64,000 bases of DNA from NCBI GenBank assembly GCA_000004985.1, contig GG738908.1; one strand, written 5' to 3'. Positions 2,485 through 63,944 of the stretch are shown piece after piece (position 1 is the first letter of the stretch; each line of letters starts with the position of its first letter). The notes below the pieces were generated by a model. The model was given only the letters and a program-made list of their open reading frames with translations, made no database searches and had not been told where the DNA came from. Source of the stretch: Naegleria gruberi. Taxonomy: Eukaryota. A program made the translations under genes and the position numbers.

Positions 2485-3119
2485 TCTCTATATATGTTAG
2501 TTGTATTTGTAGTATTTGTTATTGGTTATTAAATAGAAATGATGAGGATGAGAGAAAGGAGGATGAAGAGTAATAAACCTTCAAGAAGCCTTTTGTAATA
2601 TGTTACTAAGGAATATTGAGGAGTAGGACAACAATCAATAAATATATACACGAGAGAGAGATGAGAATATTTTCTTGAAAATGTTAATGATGCGCAAAAG
2701 CAGTTACTATTGTTGGTTTGATAAATCCTTAAAGGCTTGGATTTTTTTAGAGAGAATTTTTCGCTTTATTTACTGTGTGGTGATGTTGATTAACTTGGAA
2801 CTGAAAATGCCCTTAACAATATTATTCCCTTCTTCTAAGTGAGGCTGGAATGCATATTCTAACACCTCTCAAAAAAATTTATAACCGTTTGATTGAAATG
2901 TCCATAACAGTCACTGTGGTTTTCCTCTCTTACGCTGCTTCCATGTTTATACATTAACAGATGATGAAGGAACAAAATGTTTATCACCTCTCTTAATATG
3001 GATTTATTTCATGGGTGAAATACAACAATTCTAAGAAGGAATCAACTTAAGGTACTATTAATTTTTATAACATAACATCCTTAATGAACCTTCACAAACC
3101 AAATTAAATAGAAATAAGA

Positions 3120-3191
3120 TCCCGTGTAGTCCAATGGCTAGGATACCTGGCTTTCACCCAGGAGGTCCGGGTTCAATTCCCGGCATGGGAG
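3120..3191 (+). tRNA. tRNA-Glu (anticodon UUC)
   Basis: 72-nt cloverleaf: acceptor TCCCGTG/CATGGGA, anticodon loop CTTTCAC (anticodon TTC), T-arm CCGGG-TTCAATT-CCCGG. Confidence 0.85.
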
Positions 3192-3210
3192 GATTGTTTT
3201 ACAATGTGAA

Positions 3211-3666: not shown

Positions 3667-3787
3667 GATTTAAATATAGATCTACCAAGGTTACAAAGGT
3701 GTAACGGCAGGAAAGCTCATGGTCACATTTTATGCCTGAAAACCCAATCTGAGTCCGATTAAGGTTATTCTGATTTCAAAAAGAACG

Positions 3788-3845
3788 TAAGCCTAACACG
3801 CTTAAGGTCGCGGGTTCAAGCCCCGCTCGCTGTAACCTTTTAACA
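3788..3845 (+). pseudogene. 5'-truncated tRNA-Val(AAC) pseudogene: the 3' 48 nt of the tRNA (anticodon stem to acceptor end) plus 10 nt of 3' flank, identical to the intact tRNA-Val gene at 40254..40327
   Basis: taagcctaacacgcttaaggtcgcgggttcaagccccgctcgctgta followed by accttttaac is identical to the reverse complement of 40244..40301. The D-arm and 5' acceptor half are absent (upstream is ...tttcaaaaagaacg). Confidence 0.75.
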
Positions 3846-3913
3846 TATGCTTAATGGTTCAAAATTCAAACATTCCTTAATTCCTGAACAACCTCAATTT
3901 AGTGTTCATGTAA

Positions 3914-3987
3914 GCCTTCCTAGCTCAGTTGGCAGTAGCGCTGTCCTAGTAAGACAGAGGTCTTGGGTTCGATTCCCAAGGGAGGCA
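3914..3987 (+). tRNA. tRNA-Thr (anticodon AGU)
   Basis: Acceptor GCCTTCC/GGGAGGC, anticodon loop CTAGTAA (anticodon AGT), T-arm TTGGG-TTCGATT-CCCAA, discriminator A. Confidence 0.85.
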
Positions 3988-4180
3988 AGGTTTTAGTGTT
4001 AGACTTAGATTTTCGTTCAGAGAAATGAGTTTACATCTGATATTTAAATTTTTATCAATGATGTGTGAGTCAATTTTATATTTTCAATAATATTTTAGTG
4101 CTTCTGCAACAACAAAATAATTTTCAATTTAATTATTGATTTACTCGAAGAAAGAACAATAAAATTATCAAGTTAAAAAA

Positions 4181-7100
4181 ATGTTGAAAAAACTCACAAA
4201 TGTTCTCTCAGCTTCAACAACAACATCATCATCATCGGCTGCTGCTTCTTCTACCACTTCCATAGTAGCATCCATGAATTCCATGATGATGAAAAATAAT
4301 TTATTATTAACAAAGAATAATTTAATTCATCATCATCATCAATCGAAGGCTTCTTTTTCATCACTATTAAATGTGAGTCATTATGAATCATCATCACCTT
4401 CCGATAATATTAGTAGTAATATACAAACAACAACAACAACACAAAAGGCTCCAAGTAAAAATTGTACTACTAAAAAGTACATTGAAGATACTAAACCATC
4501 AAAGGCTTCTTCTACTAATATTAATGGTCATTCATCTACATCATCATCTACATCATCATCCTCTCAAAAGATAGTTATTAATACAAAATTAAATACTAGT
4601 GTTAAAAACTTTATTAGAAATTCATCATCCTCATCATCCGCATCCGCATCATCCTCATTAATTCAAAGTGAAAATGATAAAAAGATTAAAAAACAAAAAA
4701 GTACAGATTTAAAATCACTTTCATTAAAACTTCATGAACCTTTATTTGGAAGTGAAAGTGTTGAAAATATTTCTAAATTAACAGAATATTCAAATCAAGT
4801 AAAAGAAAGAATATTAAAATTATATCAAAATTATGAACCATATCAATATGTTGAATTAACAAGATATTTACTTTATTTAAATCAAGTACAATATATTCCT
4901 GATGTTATTACAATGGCTAATAAGAATAGAAATGTAATTTCACATTATTCATTTGCTAAAGAATTAGCTTATCAATTAGAAAGAAAAGGAAAACATATTC
5001 ATAGTCATTTAAATGAATATGAAGGTATTGATACTAAATTAATATTAAATCAATGTTCTAAATGTTTAGATTTAATGATTTCAAGTGGATATAAAGCTGT
5101 TAAAACTACAAATACTGATATTTTCATTGACATGTTATGTTATAGAATTAAAATGTTTCATCATTCAAATGATTTTAAAGGTAATTTTTAATTATTTTTA
5201 ATATATTTAATTTAATTATTTTTATTTAATTTTAATATTAATATAGGACTTAAAAAATTATTTGAAAATCAATTAAAACCATTAACATCAAGATTTTTAA
5301 CACATCCAGTAGTATTATGTAAATTATATAATGTATTAGGACATGTTTTAATTGAAATGAATGAATTAAATTATTTATATGAACAAGTTTATGCTAAAAA
5401 TATTAATAATCATTTTAATATAGTTAAATTAGTTAAAAAAGGAATATCAGGTACACCATTATTTGTAACAGTATCTGAATTACTTTCTAAATCTAATATT
5501 TTACATACAAATATAGCAAGTAAATTAAGTTTATTAGGAGTTGAATATTTAGAATTAGCTAAAAAAGAACAAGATGCAGAATTTTTAAAAAAATTAGGAG
5601 GAACAATATCAAAAACATATGGAGATTTATTTGATGTTGATAAAAATAATTTATTACCATTGGAAAATTACTTTTCATTCTATTTAAATTTTATTTCATA
5701 TTATTGGAATTTATATAGTGATGTATTAGATAGAAAATTACTTAAATATGTTTCTGTTAGATTTTTATATTTATATGCTCGATTAGTACATGATTCTGCA
5801 TATGATGTTAGTAGTTCAAGAGAAGCTGAATATGTTCATCAAGTTTTAATTGAAAATCAAATTCCATTAACAAATGATATTTATCATTGTTTACTTGTTA
5901 TTTATGCACATACTGGTAAACAAGATTTATGTGAAAATTTATTTAATACTATTATTAATAGTAGTAATGATAATATGAATGATATGAATGATAGTAATGA
6001 TATGAATAATATAAATTTAAATAATATCAATGATATGAATAATAATATGAATAATATGAATAATTCTAATAATTCTAATAATTCTAATAATAATTCTAAT
6101 AATATTTATGATAGTAAAAGAACAATTTATCAATCAATGGTAAATGCCTATTCAATTATGGGTAATTTTGAAAAGGCACTTTATTATGCAACACAAGTTA
6201 AAATGAATATTGAAGTATTGAATGCATTATTAAAATCAGTTGCAACATTATGTTTACCAAATATGAGAAATTTAAATGATGAAGATTATATATTATCATG
6301 TTTACAAAAAACAATACAATTATTTGCAGATCATTCAATTCAATATGATGGTATAACATTGAATACATTAATTAATATATATGGATTATTAGGTAAATTA
6401 CCATATATGATAAAACATTTTCAAATGTTAGTTGATAATATAAATTTTAAAGAATATGTTAATGCTATTACATTTACAACAGTAATTAGACATTTATGTA
6501 TGAATGATCATTTTGATTCAGCACTTGATATGTTTAATCGTATGAAAGAATTAAATATTAAACCAACACGTGTAACTTATAAAGTATTACTTGAAGGAAT
6601 GATATTAACAGGTAAAGATTGTTTACCAATGATTATGCAAAATATGAAATATGATAATATTAGTATGGATGATCATTTAGTTGGATCAATTGTTTTATAT
6701 TATGCTAGTAGAACTAGAAATGAACAACAATTAATGGATATATTAAGTGTTGTTGATAGACATAAAAGTGAATATACTCCAAAAGTTTATGAACATTTAG
6801 TTTTATTTTATTGTAAAATTAATAATTTTTCAAGAGCAAGATTTTTAATTTATGAAATGTTAGAACGTGGTGTTACTCCTACAATGAGAACATTTACACA
6901 TTTTATTACATTTTTACATACACATATGGATTCATTTGATTTATTACATATTTTATTACCTATTGAACAAGATATTGTAAATTATATTACACAAAGAAAG
7001 AAGGGTGAATTAAATAGTTTATCTAATACTATTTTTGATGGTAAAGATTTAGGTATTGGCCTAAGTTTATTACAAATAATGTTACAAAAAGTTGATTTTA

Positions 7101-7771
7101 CACAATTACAAACTAAAATTGAACATTTATCAAGAGATCATTATTTAAATAAGAATGTTTCTTATATTTTATCAGGTTTAATTAAAACAGATCCAAATGC
7201 AAATGTTAAAGATTTTATTGATAATTTAATTTATTTATTTGAATCATGTGGATGTTCTCCATTTGCATCTACAAATGCTCTATTTTTACATGTTATTAGT
7301 GAATTAAAAGGTCCATTTGAAATGAAACAATTTTATTTGGAAATGAAGAGAAATAATTTAATACTTGATATTAGATCATTTAATTTATATTTGGAAGCTT
7401 TATTAAATACTGAAGGTTCAAATTCAATGTGGAAATATTTTAATACTTGTCAAACAAGTACTGAAATTATTAAAATTAATCCAGATATTGATACTCTTCA
7501 TATTTTAATTAGATCTATTAGAGATTTTAATGATATGGAATTTATTTTATCTAAATATAGACAATTTATTGATAGTACTAGATATTTATCACCAAAACTT
7601 TCAAAACAAAAAACATCAAAGAATTCACCACAATTAAAAGAGGAAATTATTTCTTCAATTTTAGATGCAATTGAATCAAAGGAATCATTAATTAATAGTA
7701 ATCAAACTTTTGCAAGAATTGAACAAATGAAAGATTATTTACAAAAGGCTTTATTTTCATTCATTGAATAA
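4181..7771 (+). CDS. pentatricopeptide-repeat (PPR) protein, probably mitochondrial. Two exons, 4181..5180 and 5247..7771, with a 66-nt intron GTAATT...ATATAG. Ser-rich N-terminus and an internal poly-Asn tract.
   Basis: The two ORFs join in frame across a GT..AG intron (KG|GLKKLFENQ...MNELNYLY). There are repeated 35-aa helical PPR-like units (e.g. HCLLVIYAHTGKQDLCENLF, NTLINIYGLLGKLPYMIKHFQ, NAITFTTVIRHLCMNDHFDSALDMFNRMKELNIKPTRVTYKVLLEGM). Confidence 0.7.
5958..6108 (+). repeat. coding trinucleotide microsatellite (AAT/GAT/ATG units) encoding an N/D/M/S-rich low-complexity tract inside the PPR gene
   Basis: Imperfect trinucleotide repeats such as gatatgaat gatatgaat gatagtaat ... aattctaat aattctaat aattctaat. 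Confidence 0.6.
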
Positions 7772-12220: not shown

Positions 12221-14074
12221 TTACTCGTTTGATGATGGTGACGATGTAGAGGAAGCAGCTGCTTGTTTTTTCTTTTCAAGTGGATTGACAAACTTTTTCT
12301 TTGCAAGAGGATTAACTGCAGGTGTGGCTTTCTTTTCACTGGCAGCTGTCAGCTCAGATAACAGTTTTTCAATTTCTTCTGGTGTTTCGAAAGGTGTATC
12401 CTTCTTTCTTGCCTTAACCAAACTCATTAATTTAGACCAATAATTAATATTAAAATTCAATGCCAACAATTGAGTGTTGTTGATGATTGCCTTAGGTAAA
12501 TATACATGTTCCTTAAGAAGTTGGAGGAAATTCAATCCTAATTTGTATTCATTCATGTTAGGTCCAATAATTAATGCTCCAATTAATTGGTATTGTTCTC
12601 CAATTGTATTGAACAGGAATTTCATATAGATATTCTTTTGAATTTGTTCATCAATTACTATAGTTTGTAAATTTGAATCGGTAGAATCATATTCTCCTAG
12701 GCAAGTAATGTGAAGTCCAAAAAATTTTGGAGTTTGAGAGAAGAAGAGCTTGGAATTCTTCTTAGAAAGAATGTGATGTGCACAGGCACTGGCTTGTTCT
12801 CTAGCACTAGTCCAATTTTTCCAAACATTGGTCTTTCCTTCTTGTGTGGTTATTTCTGCACAATCACCAATACAGTAAATATTTGGAACTATTGTTGAAT
12901 TATTTGTATGAATTTGGAAGTGTTCATCCACTAAAATACCACCATTGACACCAAGTGATGCATCCAAACATTTAGTTGCAAGACTGGTTTCACTATTAAC
13001 ACCAACAGCTTGAACAATCAAAGAGCATGGAATAATTCCATTACTTGTCTTGACACTATGTGCAAGATTATTAACATCACTATATAAAATACTCTCCACT
13101 TGAGTTTCTAATTGAATATCAAGATATTTTCCATATTTCTCCTTAGCTAACTTTAAAATCATATCACAAGCAGCTTCGTCACGGAGAAGAGATTTTCCCA
13201 AATGTTTTCCTCTACCAATTATGGTAATCTTTGGTAGAATGTTGGTATTCTTAATGCTCCAAACTTCTTCAATGGTTTGCTTTGAAGGTTGTGCAGAAGC
13301 TTCGCCATTCAACAACTTTTCAATTGCTTCATAACCTTCAATAATGTGACTAACAATGTCAATAGATAATGTACCACTTCCAATAATAACAATTCTATTA
13401 TGATCTAAATTATTTTCATTACTTTCATAATAATCATATAATTGTTTCATCAATTGATGAATATATTCAACTTGTTCAATATTTCTAATATATAAATAAT
13501 TCGATATTTGTGATTGAATTTCTCCAAAATTAACAATTAATTGTTCTCTATTCAATCCTATAACACTCTTCTCATTTGAAACTTCTGTTGGATAATTAAC
13601 AACATGAGCCTTTCCGCCAATACATAAACAAAGTGTATCATAATGAAGTGAAATCTCATCATCACTTCCAACAGTTTTATATTTAATAACTTGTTCAACA
13701 TTATTAATATCAAAAACTGAAGTATTAAACAACACTTGATCCACACCATATTTTGTAATAAAACTATTATTCTCTCCATTTAAATGAATTCCTCCAAAAT
13801 AATCCAAATGCTTGGAATGCCATTGCAAAAACTTGAATCGGAAGAATAAATTAGGTCTACTACAAAAATCCTCTCTTGTAATTAATATAATTTTGTATTG
13901 TTTTTCTTGTTTTTCAATTTCTCTGATAGATTGAATAAAACTGAGACCAGAATAACCACCTCCGATGACAACCATTGTTTTCAATGGTGTGCTACTAGTT
14001 GTGGTTGTAGTTGTGGCAGTAGTAGCAGTGGATGACAGAGTTTCAGTTTGTTCGGCCATTTTTTTCAATTTCAA
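12221..14074 (-). CDS. FAD/NAD(P)-binding pyridine nucleotide-disulfide oxidoreductase, PYROXD1-like
   Basis: Two Rossmann motifs (VVIGGGYSGL; IVIIGSGTLSIDIV) and YCIGDCA near the C-terminus. Colinear similarity to human PYROXD1 (YDTLCLCIGGKAHVV vs YKKLCLCAGAKPKLI; IYCIGDCAEIT vs IYAAGDICTTS). C-terminal Lys-rich tail. Confidence 0.75.
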   Translation of the reverse strand: MKLKKMAEQTETLSSTATTATTTTTTSSTPLKTMVVIGGGYSGLSFIQSIREIEKQEKQYKIILITREDFCSRPNLFFRFKFLQWHSKHLDYFGGIHLNGENNSFITKYGVDQVLFNTSVFDINNVEQVIKYKTVGSDDEISLHYDTLCLCIGGKAHVVNYPTEVSNEKSVIGLNREQLIVNFGEIQSQISNYLYIRNIEQVEYIHQLMKQLYDYYESNENNLDHNRIVIIGSGTLSIDIVSHIIEGYEAIEKLLNGEASAQPSKQTIEEVWSIKNTNILPKITIIGRGKHLGKSLLRDEAACDMILKLAKEKYGKYLDIQLETQVESILYSDVNNLAHSVKTSNGIIPCSLIVQAVGVNSETSLATKCLDASLGVNGGILVDEHFQIHTNNSTIVPNIYCIGDCAEITTQEGKTNVWKNWTSAREQASACAHHILSKKNSKLFFSQTPKFFGLHITCLGEYDSTDSNLQTIVIDEQIQKNIYMKFLFNTIGEQYQLIGALIIGPNMNEYKLGLNFLQLLKEHVYLPKAIINNTQLLALNFNINYWSKLMSLVKARKKDTPFETPEEIEKLLSELTAASEKKATPAVNPLAKKKFVNPLEKKKQAAASSTSSPSSNE

Positions 14075-14341: not shown

Positions 14342-15779
14342 ATGTCAGCAGCAAATAGTAGTGATGATACAACAACAACAACAGGAAATAATTTATTTCC
14401 ATTGATAAATCATTTGGATCAGGTAAAACAAGCTATCGGATCAGATACTGATGATTTTAAATTCATGACTCAGGATAATTATCTATTCTATTGTTATGGG
14501 AGGGTGAAGACTACAACATTTCCATCAATTGAAAGTGGTGATGATGAACAAATTCAGGATATGAAAAAGATTAGAAGGGAAATTAGAGGGTTAGCCTTTG
14601 ACAAGGATAGTGGAAAGTTGGTGAGCAGATGTTTACACAAGTTTTTTAATTGTAAGTATTTATTTATTACTCTTTATTGTAAACTAAATAATAATATTTG
14701 GAAATATTTGAAAAATTATTGCAATTTTAATAGTGGATGAAAATGCAGAAACAAATACAGAATATTTAGAAAACAAGTATAATCCAAATGGTGATTGTAA
14801 TTTATTGGATATTTTCCTTGTTTTAGAAAAGTTGGATGGTTCAATGATTATGCCAATTATTGTCGATGGTAAAATTGTGTTTAGAACTAAAAGAGGTTAT
14901 TTTAATCAAGTTACAAATCAAGCAGATAAATTTGTAGCTGAATCTCAAGTGAAATATTTGGAATTTTGTACAAAATTAATGAAAGAAGGATATACACCAA
15001 TATTTGAATTTTATTCGAAAGAGAATATGGTGGTAATTGAATATGATTCAACATTTTTGACTTTAATTGCAATTAGATATACAGAAAAGGGAGATTATGT
15101 ACCATACAATGAAATGTGTGAAATGTGTAATGAATTTTCTATTCCATTTGTGAAATGTATTTTCAGTAATACTGACCAAGATGAACAATCCAAAAAGACA
15201 GTTATCAAATCATTCAAACAATTGAAGAGCAAAGTGAATACAATCAAAGGTATTGAGGGAGTTGTCATTCGTCACAAAGTTTCAGGTGAAATGTTTAAAT
15301 TCAAAACCAATTGGTATTCTGAACAACACAAAAAGAAACAACTTGTTACTGATGGTAATCCATCACCAGCACATATTTGGAAATTTGTAATGGATGATTG
15401 TATTGATGATATCATTCCAGTTTTAAATACTGAAAAGGAAAAGCAAGAATTGAGAAGGTTTAACGATGAGGTCTTGAATGCTATTGATGATTGTGCTAAA
15501 AGATCTTTGGAAATTATTGAATTTGCAATGAATTTAGGAAGCGCAAAAGAAACAGCAAGTTACATTGCCCAGGAATCAGGTCATAATACTATTTTCAAAA
15601 AGATTGTTTACAAAATCAAAACAGAAATTGACAAGAAGACTAATCAGCAAGACTACATGTCACCTCAAGATGTTGTGAAATATTTCCTTTTACAATTTAT
15701 TTTCAAGGATTTGAATTTGGTGAAGGAATGTTTAAACACTCCAGACTTGGTTTACACAAATTACAAAATTACAAATTGA
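14342..15779 (+). CDS. T4 Rnl1-family ATP-dependent RNA ligase (stand-alone adenylyltransferase/ligase domain, about 447 aa). Two exons, 14342..14651 and 14734..15779, with an 82-nt intron GTAAGT...TTTTAATAG.
   Basis: Colinear with T4 RNA ligase 1: IRGLAFDKDSGKLVSRCLHKFFNLDEN (T4: [30 protein letters not shown]); motif I lysine adenylation site LEKLDGSMI (T4 LTKEDGSLV); FEFYSKENMVV (T4 FEFVAPTNRIV); motifs IV-V EGVVIRHKVSGEMFKFKTNWY (T4 [20 protein letters not shown]). Confidence 0.75.
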
Positions 15780-20159: not shown

Positions 20160-20266
20160 AAAACATGCATAGCACTCTTAATATATTAAATTATTGCTTA
20201 ACATCCAATTTATGTAAACCTCTAGATGTGAATGTTATAACAAGAAACTATTCTTAATGAATGTAA

Positions 20267-20340
20267 GCCGTCATAGCTCAGTTGGATAGAGCACAGGACT
20301 TCTAATCCTGGGGTCGTGGGTTCGAGCCCCATTGTCGGTA
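20267..20340 (+). tRNA. tRNA-Arg (anticodon UCU)
   Basis: Acceptor GCCGTCA/TGTCGGT (one T-T mismatch plus G-U), D-arm GCTC-AGTTGGATA-GAGC, anticodon loop CTTCTAA, T-arm GTGGG-TTCGAGC-CCCAT. Close to human tRNA-Arg-TCT. Confidence 0.8.
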
Positions 20341-20456
20341 AATGTTTTAATTTTTACTCTCAGATTCATGTGGAAAATTCAATCAGGATTACAATAGTAC
20401 AATATGGATTAAGGTGATTTTTGTAGGAGTGTTAAGGTGATCTTCCTTAATGTGCT

Positions 20457-20527
20457 CGTCTCGTGGTGTAATGGTAGCATAGTGGACTTTGAATCCATTG
20501 ACGGAGGTTCGATTCCTCCCGAGACGG
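20457..20527 (+). tRNA. tRNA-Gln (anticodon UUG)
   Basis: Acceptor CGTCTCG/CGAGACG, TGGTGTAATGGT D-arm typical of tRNA-Gln, anticodon loop CTTTGAA, T-arm GGAGG-TTCGATT-CCTCC. Confidence 0.85.
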
Positions 20528-20924
20528 TAAACGTGGCGAGCCATAGAATTTTATTTAATATATTTCATTATAGCTTGATGTACACCCTTTGATAATGGAT
20601 TCGAATGAATAATTGTAAAATCGAGTCGATTCATCGAATTAATTTTGTGAAACAAATAGTAAGGACTGAAATAGGTAATCTGTTGAGCTGGTTATTCAAG
20701 TCAATCACAGTTGTCTGATTATTGGATATCATTAGACCAGGTGTAATTCTCCTCACTGCTAACCAGCTTTCATGAAACTCGTCACAGAGCTTGGTTTCAA
20801 TTTTATGTGTGTTGAATTGATCATCTATTCAATTCTTTCTTATTTCCAGTCTAAAATTATTTCATAAATTATTTACAAAATATTTATTATTACAATTATA
20901 ATATATTATTAATTATTATCTAAA

Positions 20925-40163: not shown

Positions 40164-40253
40164 ACTCAAATTATTGTGATGTTGTAAATATTAAATATTT
40201 TTGTCTATCAAAATGAAGTAGAATTGAAAAATGTAAATAATCAGTTAAAAGGT

Positions 40254-40327
40254 TACAGCGAGCGGGGCTTGAACCCGCGACCTTAAGCGTGTTAGGCTTA
40301 CGATCTAACCAACTGATCTATCGCTGC
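40254..40327 (-). tRNA. tRNA-Val (anticodon AAC)
   Basis: Sense sequence: acceptor GCAGCGA/TCGCTGT, D-arm GATC-AGTTGGTTA-GATC, anticodon loop CTAACAC, T-arm GCGGG-TTCAAGC-CCCGC, discriminator A. Confidence 0.85.
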
Positions 40328-40476
40328 TTACATTTTGTGAATCATAACCTTATTCCACGTAATCTGGAAAGAGCAATTTCAGTTCTGTTATTTAAAAGTT
40401 TCTGTTTTGGCTGGAATTAAAACAGAATATTTCCATTTTAATATCTTTAAAAATAGAAAATAAAAAGCTTAAAAAA

Positions 40477-57408: not shown

Positions 57409-57535
57409 ATTATTAGAAGAGCTAAGGCCTGGTTTATGATTGGTTTGGTGGTAAAGATTTTATGTTGTTTAGATGTTGTAAAATGAATTAATTTCAAGTA
57501 TTGTTAAATAAAGGTATAATTCAAAATGAATGTAA

Positions 57536-57608
57536 GGGGATGTAGCTCACATGGTAGAGCGCTTCTTTAGCATGGAAGAGGTACGGGGATCGATACCCCG
57601 CATCTCCA
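57536..57608 (+). tRNA. tRNA-Ala (anticodon AGC) with the canonical G3:U70 identity pair
   Basis: Acceptor GGGGATG/CATCTCC (G3-T70 wobble), D-arm GCTC-ACATGGTA-GAGC, anticodon loop TTAGCAT, T-arm CGGGG-ATCGATA-CCCCG, discriminator A. Confidence 0.85.
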
Positions 57609-59179: not shown

Positions 59180-59418
59180 TTTTTTTAATTCTCTCTTTGC
59201 TGAACCAAGTTAAATTATGATGACCTGGAAAGATTACAATTTAAATTAAAAATTAAAAAAAATGTCGTCATGATCAATAGGAGGAGATCGCATGTAATAA
59301 TCGTAACAATCCTTTACAATTATGATCAATAATTAGGAAATAAGATATCCAGTACTCAGGATAAAGGGAATTAAAAAGGAATATCTAGATACAAATAACT
59401 AGAAATATAAAACAGAAT

Positions 59419-59491
59419 CGCCCACCGTGGGGGTCGAACCCACGACCACAAGGTTAAGAGCCTTGCGCTCTACCGACTGAGCTAGACGGGC
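59419..59491 (-). tRNA. tRNA-Lys (anticodon CUU)
   Basis: Sense sequence GCCCGTCTAGCTCAGTCGGTAGAGCGCAAGGCTCTTAACCTTGTGGTCGTGGGTTCGACCCCCACGGTGGGCG, near-identical to metazoan tRNA-Lys-CTT. Anticodon loop CTCTTAA. Confidence 0.85.
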
Positions 59492-59686
59492 TACATATCA
59501 CTCCCCAAAAATCTCAATAAAAAATTATTAAGACTTACTTGTTTAATGGCTGAACTTAATAAAAGAATATTAAATAATGAAAAGAAATTTACTTAATTCA
59601 CTCTTACTTCTCTTGGTTTGGATTATTTCATACAAATACTAGATCAATTAACAAGTAGTTAGTGCATCCACATCATTCAGAATAAT

Positions 59687-62017: not shown

Positions 62018-63364
62018 TTATTCATATTGTGGTTCAGTTTCACCTTCAATATCACCATCAACTTGATCATCGACAGTGGCATCTTGGTATTGTTGATATT
62101 CATTAACCAAATCAGTCAAGTTGGATTCAGCTTCAGTGAATTCCATTTCATCCATACCTTGATCAATGTAAGTGTGTAAGAAGGCCTTTCTCTTGTACAT
62201 TTGTTGGAATTGAGTACCAATTCTCTTGAAAACTTCTTGGATAGCAGTTGAGTTACCAATGAAAGTACCAGAAACCTTTTGACCAACTGGAGGAACATCA
62301 CAAACAGATGACTTGATATTGTTTGGAATCCATTCAACAAAGTTTTGAGAATACTTTCTTTGCATTCCCAACATTTGTTCATCAATTTCGTTAGTTGACA
62401 AGTTAAGACCTCTGAAAGTAGCACTGGCAGCCAAATATTTACCCATAGATGGATCACAAGCAGCCATCATATTCTTCTTATTGAACATTTGTGAAGTCAA
62501 TTCAGCAATTGACAAGGCAGAGTATTGTTGAGATGAAGTAGCAGCCAAAGGAGCAGAACCAACAACGAAGAAGTGCAATCTTGGGAATGGAATCAAATTG
62601 ACAGCCAACTTTCTCAAATCAGAGTTCAATTGACCTGGGAATCTCAAGCTTGAAGTAACACCAGACATGACACCAGCAACCAAATTATTCAAATCAGCAA
62701 ATGATGGTTGTGGTAACTTTAAGGTTCTAGTACAAATATCGAACAATGCTTCATTGTCCAAACAGAAAACTTCATCAGCAGATTCAATCAATTGATGCAA
62801 ACTTAAAGTAGCATTGTATGGTTCAACAACAGTTTCAGACATTTTTGGTGATGGCAAAACAGAGAAAGCAGCCAACATTCTATCAGGGAAATCTTCCTTC
62901 AATTTAGATAACAACAAAGTACCCAAACCAGAACCAGTACCACCACCCAATGAGTGAGTCAATTGGAATCCTTGCAAACATTCACAATGTTCAACTTCCT
63001 TTCTCAAAACATCCATAATTTGGTCAGCCAATTCAGCACCTTCAGTATAATGTCCCTTTGCCCAGTTGTTACCAGCTGAACCTTCAGAAGCAATGAAATT
63101 ATCTGGACGGAACAATGTACCACTCTTTGATGATTTAACAGTGTCTAAAACTGATGATTCTAAATCAACCAAGACACTTCTTGGTACGTAACGGTTTCCT
63201 TGGCTTTCAGAGAAGTAGACACCCAAGTTTTCCTTTAAAATTGGATTAGTTTCGACGAATTCACCATCGGCATTTAAACCATGTTCATTACGAATGGTTT
63301 CCCAGAAATGTTGACCAATTTGGTTACCACATTGACCAACGCTGATTGATACGATTTCTCTCAT
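62018..63364 (-). CDS. tubB: beta-tubulin (divergent isotype)
   Basis: [17 protein letters not shown]..., [59 protein letters not shown]..., FPRLHFF, ...[27 protein letters not shown] with an acidic C-terminal tail. Roughly two-thirds identical to canonical beta-tubulins over the full length. Confidence 0.9.
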
Positions 63365-63531: not shown

Positions 63532-63871
63532 CATGAGACTTGCCTTTTTGCTGGTGTGGGCAACAAATTTCGGTTGAAGTTTGAAGATTGTATCAAACTA
63601 ATCCGTTGATATGCAGTTTTCACAACTGTAAAGAGTGATGGAGGGTTTATTAAAACGTCAAACTGTTAGTTCACAATCTTCACAATAATATTTCAAACTG
63701 ACTCATTTACAAACCCAATAGCATTGAACAAATAAAAGGATTTTGAGTTATATTGCGTGCCCAAAGCGAACAGACATGTTTCATATGTTTTCAATACGCA
63801 GCAACAGGTTTTGAGTTCCCATGAAATTCAAGTATTGTTAAATAAAGGTATAATTGCAAATAAACGTAAGG

Positions 63872-63944
63872 GGAGGTGTAGCTCACATGGTAGAGCGCTT
63901 CTTTAGCATGGAAGAGGTACGGGGATCGATACCCCGCATCTCCA
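63872..63944 (+). tRNA. tRNA-Ala(AGC)-like second copy with an altered acceptor stem (GGAGGTG/CATCTCC gives A3:U70 instead of G3:U70); possibly a pseudogene or a non-alanine-charged variant
   Basis: The body from the D-arm to the 3' end is identical to the gene at 57536..57608. The 5' acceptor strand reads gggGAGgtg versus ggggatg. About 45 bp of shared 5' flank (ttcaagtattgttaaataaaggtataatt) and shared 3' flank (gcttactttttt) show the two belong to a duplicated unit. Confidence 0.6.

Follow-up and report, generated by a model that had tools for sequence, protein, structure and literature searches.

A position-locked AATGTAA motif before the tRNA genes of a 64-kb Naegleria gruberi window and its possible role as a start-site-proximal Pol III element

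Introduction

Genes for transfer RNAs (tRNAs) are the textbook case of an internal promoter, and their upstream flanks are usually poorly conserved. In these type-2 units of RNA polymerase III (Pol III), TFIIIC bound to the A and B boxes places TFIIIB upstream of the gene, and transcription starts a few to a dozen nucleotides ahead of the mature 5' end, as a rule at a purine with a pyrimidine before it. For yeast tRNA genes the start sites lie about 10-12 nt upstream, and the conservation found there is weak and statistical. In this paper we describe a short sequence, AATGTAA, that abuts the mature 5' end of most tRNA genes in one stretch of DNA from Naegleria gruberi (GenBank assembly GCA_000004985.1, contig GG738908.1). 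The whole stretch of 64,000 nucleotides that was analysed is called the window below, and it is our entire sample of the genome.

The closest described counterpart is the CAA motif of plants. According to PMC13437025, citing Yukawa et al. (2000, 2011), it is present at -10 to -3 in about 67% of angiosperm tRNA genes (tDNAs), acts in initiation and re-initiation and is implicated in the choice of the start site. The Naegleria motif resembles it in being short, in lying within the last 10 nt or so before the mature 5' end and in being common to unrelated tRNA families, and the genes of both groups end in short poly(T) terminators. The plant genes also have an upstream element around -30/-40, for which three of the Naegleria genes offer a candidate counterpart. 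The Naegleria sequence, AATGTAA, is on the other hand longer and holds one fixed position, whereas the plant motif floats over about 8 nt. Naegleria is a heterolobosean and as such distant from plants, and its motif is known here from sequence alone. CAA at -10 to -3 is found only at tRNA-Val among the tRNA genes of the window. Because its sequence differs, we do not place the Naegleria motif within the CAA class, and its best reading would be that of a functional analogue of this class. Yeast tRNA genes offer a second parallel (Giuliodori et al. 2003; Yukawa et al. 2011, both cited in PMC13437025), since they combine a conserved start-site region and upstream T/A-rich elements with promoters that are otherwise internal. 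Unlike the yeast region, the Naegleria motif touches +1 and is nearly invariant in four of seven genes.

Results

The window holds eight tRNA genes, which are counted as seven independent ones, the two tRNA-Ala copies being duplicates. With the flanks of all eight extracted, AATGTAA or CATGTAA was found to occupy -7 to -1 of tRNA-Thr, tRNA-Arg, tRNA-Val and the first tRNA-Ala copy. The sequences directly before the eight genes are the following.

57529-57535, plus strand: AATGTAA, then G+1; tRNA-Ala(AGC) copy 1, tRNA at 57536-57608; the site under study
3907-3913, plus strand: CATGTAA, then G+1; tRNA-Thr(AGT), 3914-3987; hexamer exact
20260-20266, plus strand: AATGTAA, then G+1; tRNA-Arg(TCT), 20267-20340; exact
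40328-40334, minus strand: AATGTAA, then G+1; tRNA-Val(AAC), 40254-40327; exact
59492-59498, minus strand: ATATGTA, then G+1; tRNA-Lys(CTT), 59419-59491; motif 1 nt nearer to +1
20449-20455, plus strand: AATGTGC, then T+1; tRNA-Gln(TTG), 20456-20528; degenerate, 5 of 7 positions, AATGT kept
3113-3119, plus strand: AATAAGA, then T+1; tRNA-Glu(TTC), 3120-3191; 4 of 7 positions (A-7, A-6, T-5 and A-1)
63863-63869, plus strand: AACGTAA, then an extra GG; tRNA-Ala(AGC) copy 2, 63872-63944; T-to-C change, displaced by 2 nt

The motif is common to five isoacceptor families (Thr, Arg, Val, Ala and Lys) that are unrelated and, apart from it, have dissimilar flanks. It always has the orientation of its own tRNA and sits at the 5' end, though the tRNA genes face both ways relative to their neighbours. 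All copies lie no more than about 10 nt upstream of bona fide tRNA 5' ends, and they do so in unrelated families, for which flank duplication is no explanation. An A is found at -1 in six of the seven independent genes and at -2 in four of them, and the information per position is highest at -7 to -4, at -1 and at +1. Within AATGTAA there are two pyrimidine-purine steps, TG and TA, that is T-5/G-4 and T-3/A-2.

An earlier note on this DNA had described an octamer, aaTGTAAG, at -8 to -1 of most of these tRNA genes. The shared leader proved to be real, with the exact hexamer ATGTAA in four of the seven genes, a shifted copy at Lys and five matching positions at Gln. Its position needs correction: the final G is nucleotide +1 of the tRNA and belongs to no leader, which leaves AATGTAA at -7 to -1. 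The interval 57528-57535, given for the octamer at tRNA-Ala, reads GAATGTAA, and the motif proper begins one position later. The two tRNA-Ala copies had been taken as separate cases and are merged here into one count, as they are duplicates with about 40 nt of common upstream flank; the second copy does carry AACGTAA, in this assembly as a mutated copy displaced by GG. The variants that had been pointed out at Lys and Gln are there, the former 1 nt nearer to +1 and the latter partial with AATGT, and tRNA-Glu is indeed without the motif, keeping only a remnant AAT and A-1.

ARAGORN and Rfam agree on all eight tRNA genes, with Rfam scores of 53-69 bits where the cut-off is 29. Their anticodons include AGC, AGT and AAC, as expected for eukaryotic cytoplasmic tRNAs. 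A run of four T begins 3-6 nt past the 3' end of the tRNA in seven of the eight genes, the exception being tRNA-Gln with 20 nt. Since the tRNA scores are good and T4 runs are near, all eight genes look like active and ordinary type-2 Pol III units. The terminators, in which four T are followed by A (GTTTTA or CTTTTA), are short and similar to each other.

3192-3202, plus strand: terminator
3988-3996, plus strand: terminator
20341-20350, plus strand: terminator
40244-40253, minus strand: terminator
59407-59418, minus strand: terminator

Some of the acceptor stems are odd on manual reading. The top pair is a G1·U72 wobble in tRNA-Val (40254-40327, minus strand) and tRNA-Arg (20267-20340), tRNA-Arg additionally has a U5·U68 mismatch, and tRNA-Gln (20456-20528) has U1·G72. 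Both G1·U72 and U1·G72 are unusual first pairs in cytoplasmic tRNAs, and the three genes score high in Rfam despite them.

Chance as the source of the motif is excluded within the window. ATGTAAG occurs eight times on both strands of the 64 kb, compared with 11.9 occurrences expected from shuffles, and four of the eight are placed exactly on a tRNA 5' end. In a simulation we drew seven sites of the window at random 200,000 times and recorded for each set the highest count of identical hexamers that any single offset within 25 nt gave. None of the 200,000 sets reached the observed four; the maximum was three, in 83 sets. Among the hexamers in the 60 nt ahead of the seven genes, ATGTAA ranks second by enrichment (P = 2.7e-6, uncorrected). 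Its intergenic background is about 0.07% per site, and upstream of open reading frames (ORFs) it was seen once in 6.3 kb. These motif statistics refer to exact hexamers; motif discovery on the seven flanks that tolerated mismatches or gaps did not rise above random expectation.

To judge the flanks apart from the motif, local alignments of the regions from -150 to -8 were compared with shuffles for all gene pairs. All pairs are at shuffle level except three. The flanks of the two tRNA-Ala copies are truly alike (z = 19.7). The match between Val and Lys is borderline, covers 48 columns and could not be validated, and an apparent longer similarity of Glu with Arg is likewise tentative. The match of the third pair, Thr and Gln, is due to tRNA-derived sequence upstream of both genes. 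A search for extended flank similarity among all motif loci, as in a dispersed repeat, a short interspersed element (SINE) or a segmental duplicate, found it only between the two tRNA-Ala copies and between the Val gene and a Val fragment. Because the flanks of different families are at background level, the motif is not a by-product of duplication.

The tRNA-Ala copies share an upstream block that is also present in a metagenome contig (L001) of a closely related strain, which is 99.7% identical to the window over the tubulin region.

57482-57519, plus strand: upstream block common to the tRNA-Ala copies (…TTCAAGTATTGTTAAATAAAGGTATAAT), conserved in Ala-1, Ala-2 and L001

In all three sequences the block from -55 to -17 and AATGTAA are kept, and the bases from -16 to -9 are different in each. 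This pattern suggests a constraint on the motif rather than simple recency. At the Ala-2 locus the contig has an intact AATGTAA|GGGGATGTAGC. In the reference allele the motif is mutated, and GG inserted into the acceptor stem abolishes the G3:U70 pair. We additionally observed that this tRNA-Ala beside the tubulin gene (63818-63944, compared with 560-760 of the contig) is only 95% identical, with indels, between strains that are 99.7% identical elsewhere, and that the contig allele is nearer to the distant Ala-1 copy (97.9%) than to its own allele. The difference suggests that tRNA-Ala units have undergone gene conversion or that the reference copy is decaying.

A 5'-truncated tRNA-Val(AAC) pseudogene at 3786-3843 on the plus strand consists of the 3' 50 nt and the same ACCTTTTAA trailer as the intact gene at 40254-40327. 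Ahead of it stands TTAAGGTTAT…GATTTCAAAAA, similar to the upstream flank of the intact gene. The stretch that was lost is bounded by two GTAAGC repeats, one at the junction of leader and +1 and one in the anticodon stem, and the resulting junction reads AACGTAAG, with the same T-to-C variant as at Ala-2.

A second hexamer, CTTAAT, is enriched upstream of the same genes. It ranks first in the 60 nt upstream, where five of the seven genes carry it (P = 5.7e-7), and the 100 nt upstream of the seven genes contain seven sense occurrences, compared with about 0.3-0.6 expected from window-wide or intergenic frequencies. CTTAAT is often extended to CCTTAAT or CTTAATG.

3080-3085, plus strand: CTTAAT at -40 of tRNA-Glu
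3876-3881, plus strand: CTTAAT at -38 of tRNA-Thr
3850-3855, plus strand: CTTAAT at -64 of tRNA-Thr, a further copy
59527-59532, minus strand: CTTAAT at -41 of tRNA-Lys
20253-20258, plus strand: CTTAAT at -14 of tRNA-Arg, running into the proximal motif
20446-20451, plus strand: CTTAAT at -10 of tRNA-Gln, overlapping the degenerate motif
20177-20182, plus strand: CTTAAT, among the copies upstream of tRNA genes

In Glu, Thr and Lys the hexamer stands about 30 nt ahead of the AATGTAA region, a distance typical of a TATA-like box and its start site. It is absent upstream of Val and Ala, which have the related ATAAGG and TAAAGG in the opposite strand sense near -26 instead. CTTAAT is at background level upstream of ORFs and is therefore not a general promoter word. 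These observations make it a candidate distal promoter box of the tRNA genes. TATA-like boxes are known from type-2 Pol III promoters, and so are TATA boxes at about -30 from the tRNA genes of plants and fission yeast (PMC7279448). Like such boxes, CTTAAT at -38 to -41 of Glu, Thr and Lys lies where an element for TFIIIB and its TATA-binding protein (TBP) would be expected if transcription starts in or just before AATGTAA. Unlike them, it has no TATA consensus and its position is variable; that TBP or TFIIIB binds it is purely what we infer. An A+T-rich or TATA-like element about 30 nt before the start is represented by CTTAAT in those three genes only, and the A+T richness is indistinguishable from background. 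Within the window we found no Pol III gene other than tRNA genes that has both boxes.

The distribution of the motif beyond the window was addressed in relatives and in metagenomes. No tRNA gene was found in about 110 kb of syntenic DNA from Naegleria fowleri (L002, L125, L128-L130), Naegleria lovaniensis (L004, L131) and a metagenomic Naegleria relative (L132), so that none of the eight tRNA genes in the window is syntenic. For the N. gruberi genome 924 tDNAs have been reported (PMC2888827). The lack of synteny fits this number, which indicates an enlarged and scattered complement, and the scatter or expansion of tRNA genes in N. gruberi appears to be recent. In a locus of Willaertia magna (L127) with a tRNA-Ile, an intron-containing tRNA-Tyr and a 5S gene, ATGTAA at -6 to -1 is found before none of them. 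Metagenomes were scanned with a degenerate pattern of four tRNA families, and bacterial and plant tRNA-Lys dominate among the matches listed. At least four of about 35 eukaryote-like tRNA-Lys loci among these matches have (A)TGTAA(A) directly before +1. They come from metagenomic eukaryotes of a compost sample and others.

6582-6590 of L087: (A)TGTAA(A) before tRNA-Lys(CTT)
85-93 of L030: (A)TGTAA(A) before tRNA-Lys(CTT)
1313-1321 of L016: (A)TGTAA(A) before tRNA-Lys(CTT)
about 2301-2310 of L105: (A)TGTAA(A) before tRNA-Lys(CTT)

CTTAAT is not present near -40 at these four loci, and no further tRNA was found on the longer L087 contigs. The plant-like tRNA-Lys loci among the matches listed have flanks of the CAA type, as expected. 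Naegleria tRNA sequences gave no match in viral and prokaryotic genome collections. The lineage specificity claimed by the earlier note is only weakly addressed by these data: two Willaertia tRNA genes are without the motif, and four metagenomic loci have a similar one. The motif is therefore not universal, and its type is not necessarily unique to Naegleria.

The DNA around the tRNA genes is gene-dense, with 29-37% G+C and long unbroken ORFs; intergenic G+C is 29%, and the first 2,000 nt of the window as a whole have only 15.8% G+C, about half that of the remainder. The tubulin gene beside Ala-2 is an ORF without introns at 62018-63364 on the minus strand. It is 100% identical to NCBI 'beta-tubulin [Naegleria gruberi]', 88-89% identical to one paralogue of N. 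fowleri and N. lovaniensis, and 62-67% identical to typical beta-tubulins among the matches. The full identity shows the window to be nuclear DNA of N. gruberi. We take the protein to be, probably, the divergent mitotic tubulin of Naegleria. The ORF at 14733-15779 on the plus strand matches the T4 Rnl1-type RNA ligase family (Pfam RNA_lig_T4_1, E = 5e-25), and we presume that it is possibly the characterised N. gruberi RNA ligase. It adjoins a pyridine-nucleotide-disulphide oxidoreductase gene at 12221-14074, and the pair is also adjacent in N. fowleri and N. lovaniensis. At 5357-7771 on the plus strand lies a gene for a pentatricopeptide-repeat (PPR) protein of 804 amino acids that faintly matches the PPR part of protein-only RNase P (PPR_long, E = 3.6e-4). 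As no nuclease domain was detected in it, this protein is not recognisable as a protein-only RNase P (PRORP).

Discussion

The AATGTAA motif is position-locked, non-random and independent of gene duplication, and it comes with a co-enriched second hexamer. To this extent the proposal of the earlier note, a Pol III start-site or leader element or a recognition context for RNase P, is partly supported, and initiation, leader and RNase P are not separable from sequence. The interpretation we favour, with about an even chance in our estimate of being right, is that AATGTAA belongs to the Pol III promoters of N. gruberi tRNA genes as a start-site-proximal element, and that transcripts begin with at least part of it as a very short 5' leader. 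We favour it because AATGTAA lies in the zone where Pol III starts and contains two pyrimidine-purine steps. The upstream CTTAAT, or an A+T-rich stretch nearby, would help to fix TFIIIB. Pol III would then start at a pyrimidine-purine step in or just before the motif, at T-5/G-4, T-3/A-2 or A-7/A-6, and the resulting leader of about 2-7 nt would be removed by RNase P.

Several observations weigh against a start-site element. The evidence comes from seven independent genes of one 64-kb window in a genome with 924 reported tDNAs, and the start site is only predicted. The registration to a single nucleotide is tighter than a pure initiator needs, as the floating of the plant CAA motif from -10 to -3 illustrates, and this points at least partly to a processing constraint. 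The motif is also weak in both tRNAs that begin with T, Glu and Gln, for which reason the conserved unit may include, or depend on, G+1. CTTAAT varies in position, with -14 at Arg and -10 at Gln, and its enrichment is no more than moderately significant (about 2e-3) when 4096 hexamers are allowed for. The tRNA genes of Willaertia magna, though only two in number, lack the motif altogether.

One alternative is that the motif is conserved as RNA, as the leader context for exact cleavage at +1 by the Naegleria RNase P or for another leader-binding factor such as La. This would be compatible with a start-site element, and the motif indeed abuts the cleavage site, keeps its register with the mature 5' end to the nucleotide in four genes and has A-1 in six of seven. 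Lineage-specific leader preferences are also conceivable, given that discobid relatives, as we assume, use protein-only RNase P. We nevertheless regard this explanation as possible but doubtful. Glu and Gln need processing too, yet they have different leaders that deviate at most other positions, and at Lys the motif lies 1 nt out of register. To our knowledge, recognition by RNase P enzymes centres on the body of the tRNA and takes in at most 1-2 leader nucleotides, and a leader sequence requirement of 7 nt is without precedent. Pairing of leader and trailer is predicted in only three of the seven precursors. A leader-trailer duplex was also considered as an explanation in its own right and rejected, as minimum-free-energy folds pair only the leaders of Glu, Arg and Ala and leave those of Thr, Val and Lys unpaired.

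The dense and non-syntenic occurrence of the tRNA genes, with eight in 64 kb as opposed to zero in roughly 110 kb of syntenic N. fowleri and N. lovaniensis loci, raises the question whether the motif is a functionless residue of tRNA genes that were spread or homogenised by duplication and gene conversion as units of flank, gene and terminator. The tRNA-Ala copies do share such a unit from about -55 to the terminator, the truncated tRNA-Val copy retains the same trailer and a similar upstream stretch, and at the strain-variable Ala locus beside the tubulin gene the L001 allele is closer to Ala-1, suggesting gene conversion. This origin seems improbable to us all the same, as Thr, Arg, Val, Ala and Lys share nothing upstream beyond short motifs, conversion across families over only 7 nt is implausible, and in the Ala family the bases next to the motif have drifted but the motif itself has not, which is a signature of selection. 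Leaderless transcription from +1, with ATGTAA as the untranscribed -6 to -1 part of an initiator and no need of 5' processing for tRNAs with G+1, would explain why the motif abuts +1 and is strongest on tRNAs beginning with G, a purine suited to initiation, and why Glu and Gln, which begin with T, have no clean motif. The archaeon Nanoarchaeum equitans has leaderless tRNA genes with a strictly spaced B recognition element (BRE) and TATA box and has no RNase P, and there, too, the conserved upstream sequence keeps its place relative to nucleotide 1 of the mature tRNA. Unlike in that archaeon, -1 is a purine in Naegleria and the position of the upstream box varies, and leaderless initiation is therefore unlikely. 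With A-1 in six of seven genes in place of the usual purine after a pyrimidine, a CTTAAT distance of -10 to -41 that contrasts with the strict spacing of leaderless archaeal promoters, and the shift of 1 nt at Lys, we would give it very little credence. A chance match in AT-rich DNA, or a signal of the neighbouring genes such as a poly(A)-type TGTAA or a minimal ATG-TAA frame, might be suspected since intergenic DNA has 29% G+C and ATGTAA, if translated, would be a start codon and a stop codon in succession. It can hardly be right, given that no simulated set matched the observation, that ATGTAA is found just once in the 6.3 kb upstream of ORFs and that the motif tracks the orientation and 5' end of the tRNA and not the neighbouring genes.

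A start-site element of this kind leads to a more far-reaching idea, which we consider speculative and rather unlikely. The (A)AUGUAA leader or initiator together with CTTAAT could form an external, portable cassette of promoter and processing signal for the roughly 900 dispersed tRNA genes, and cassette and gene would be mobile together, as a unit of about 150 bp. If true, such a cassette would account for the expansion of tRNA genes in N. gruberi and for their non-syntenic scatter.

Conclusions

Motifs close to the start site of tRNA genes are already known in plants and yeasts, and the general picture is unchanged by our results. In the full-text literature searched, outside of which most subscription papers lie, we found no description of Naegleria Pol III promoters, of a tRNA promoter motif in Naegleria or of its RNase P type. 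If AATGTAA is a start-site-proximal element as we favour, it would be a case of external sequence control of Pol III in a deep-branching eukaryote of the Discoba. Should the leader also be genuinely recognised by RNase P or by some other factor that acts on pre-tRNAs, the length of leader that is required would be unusual. The motif would also provide a sequence test to separate active tRNA genes from pseudogenes among the 924 tDNAs, and candidate promoter parts for the expression of small RNAs, for example guide RNAs, in Naegleria. Finally, it would give a handle on how the N. gruberi genome has multiplied and scattered its tRNA genes.

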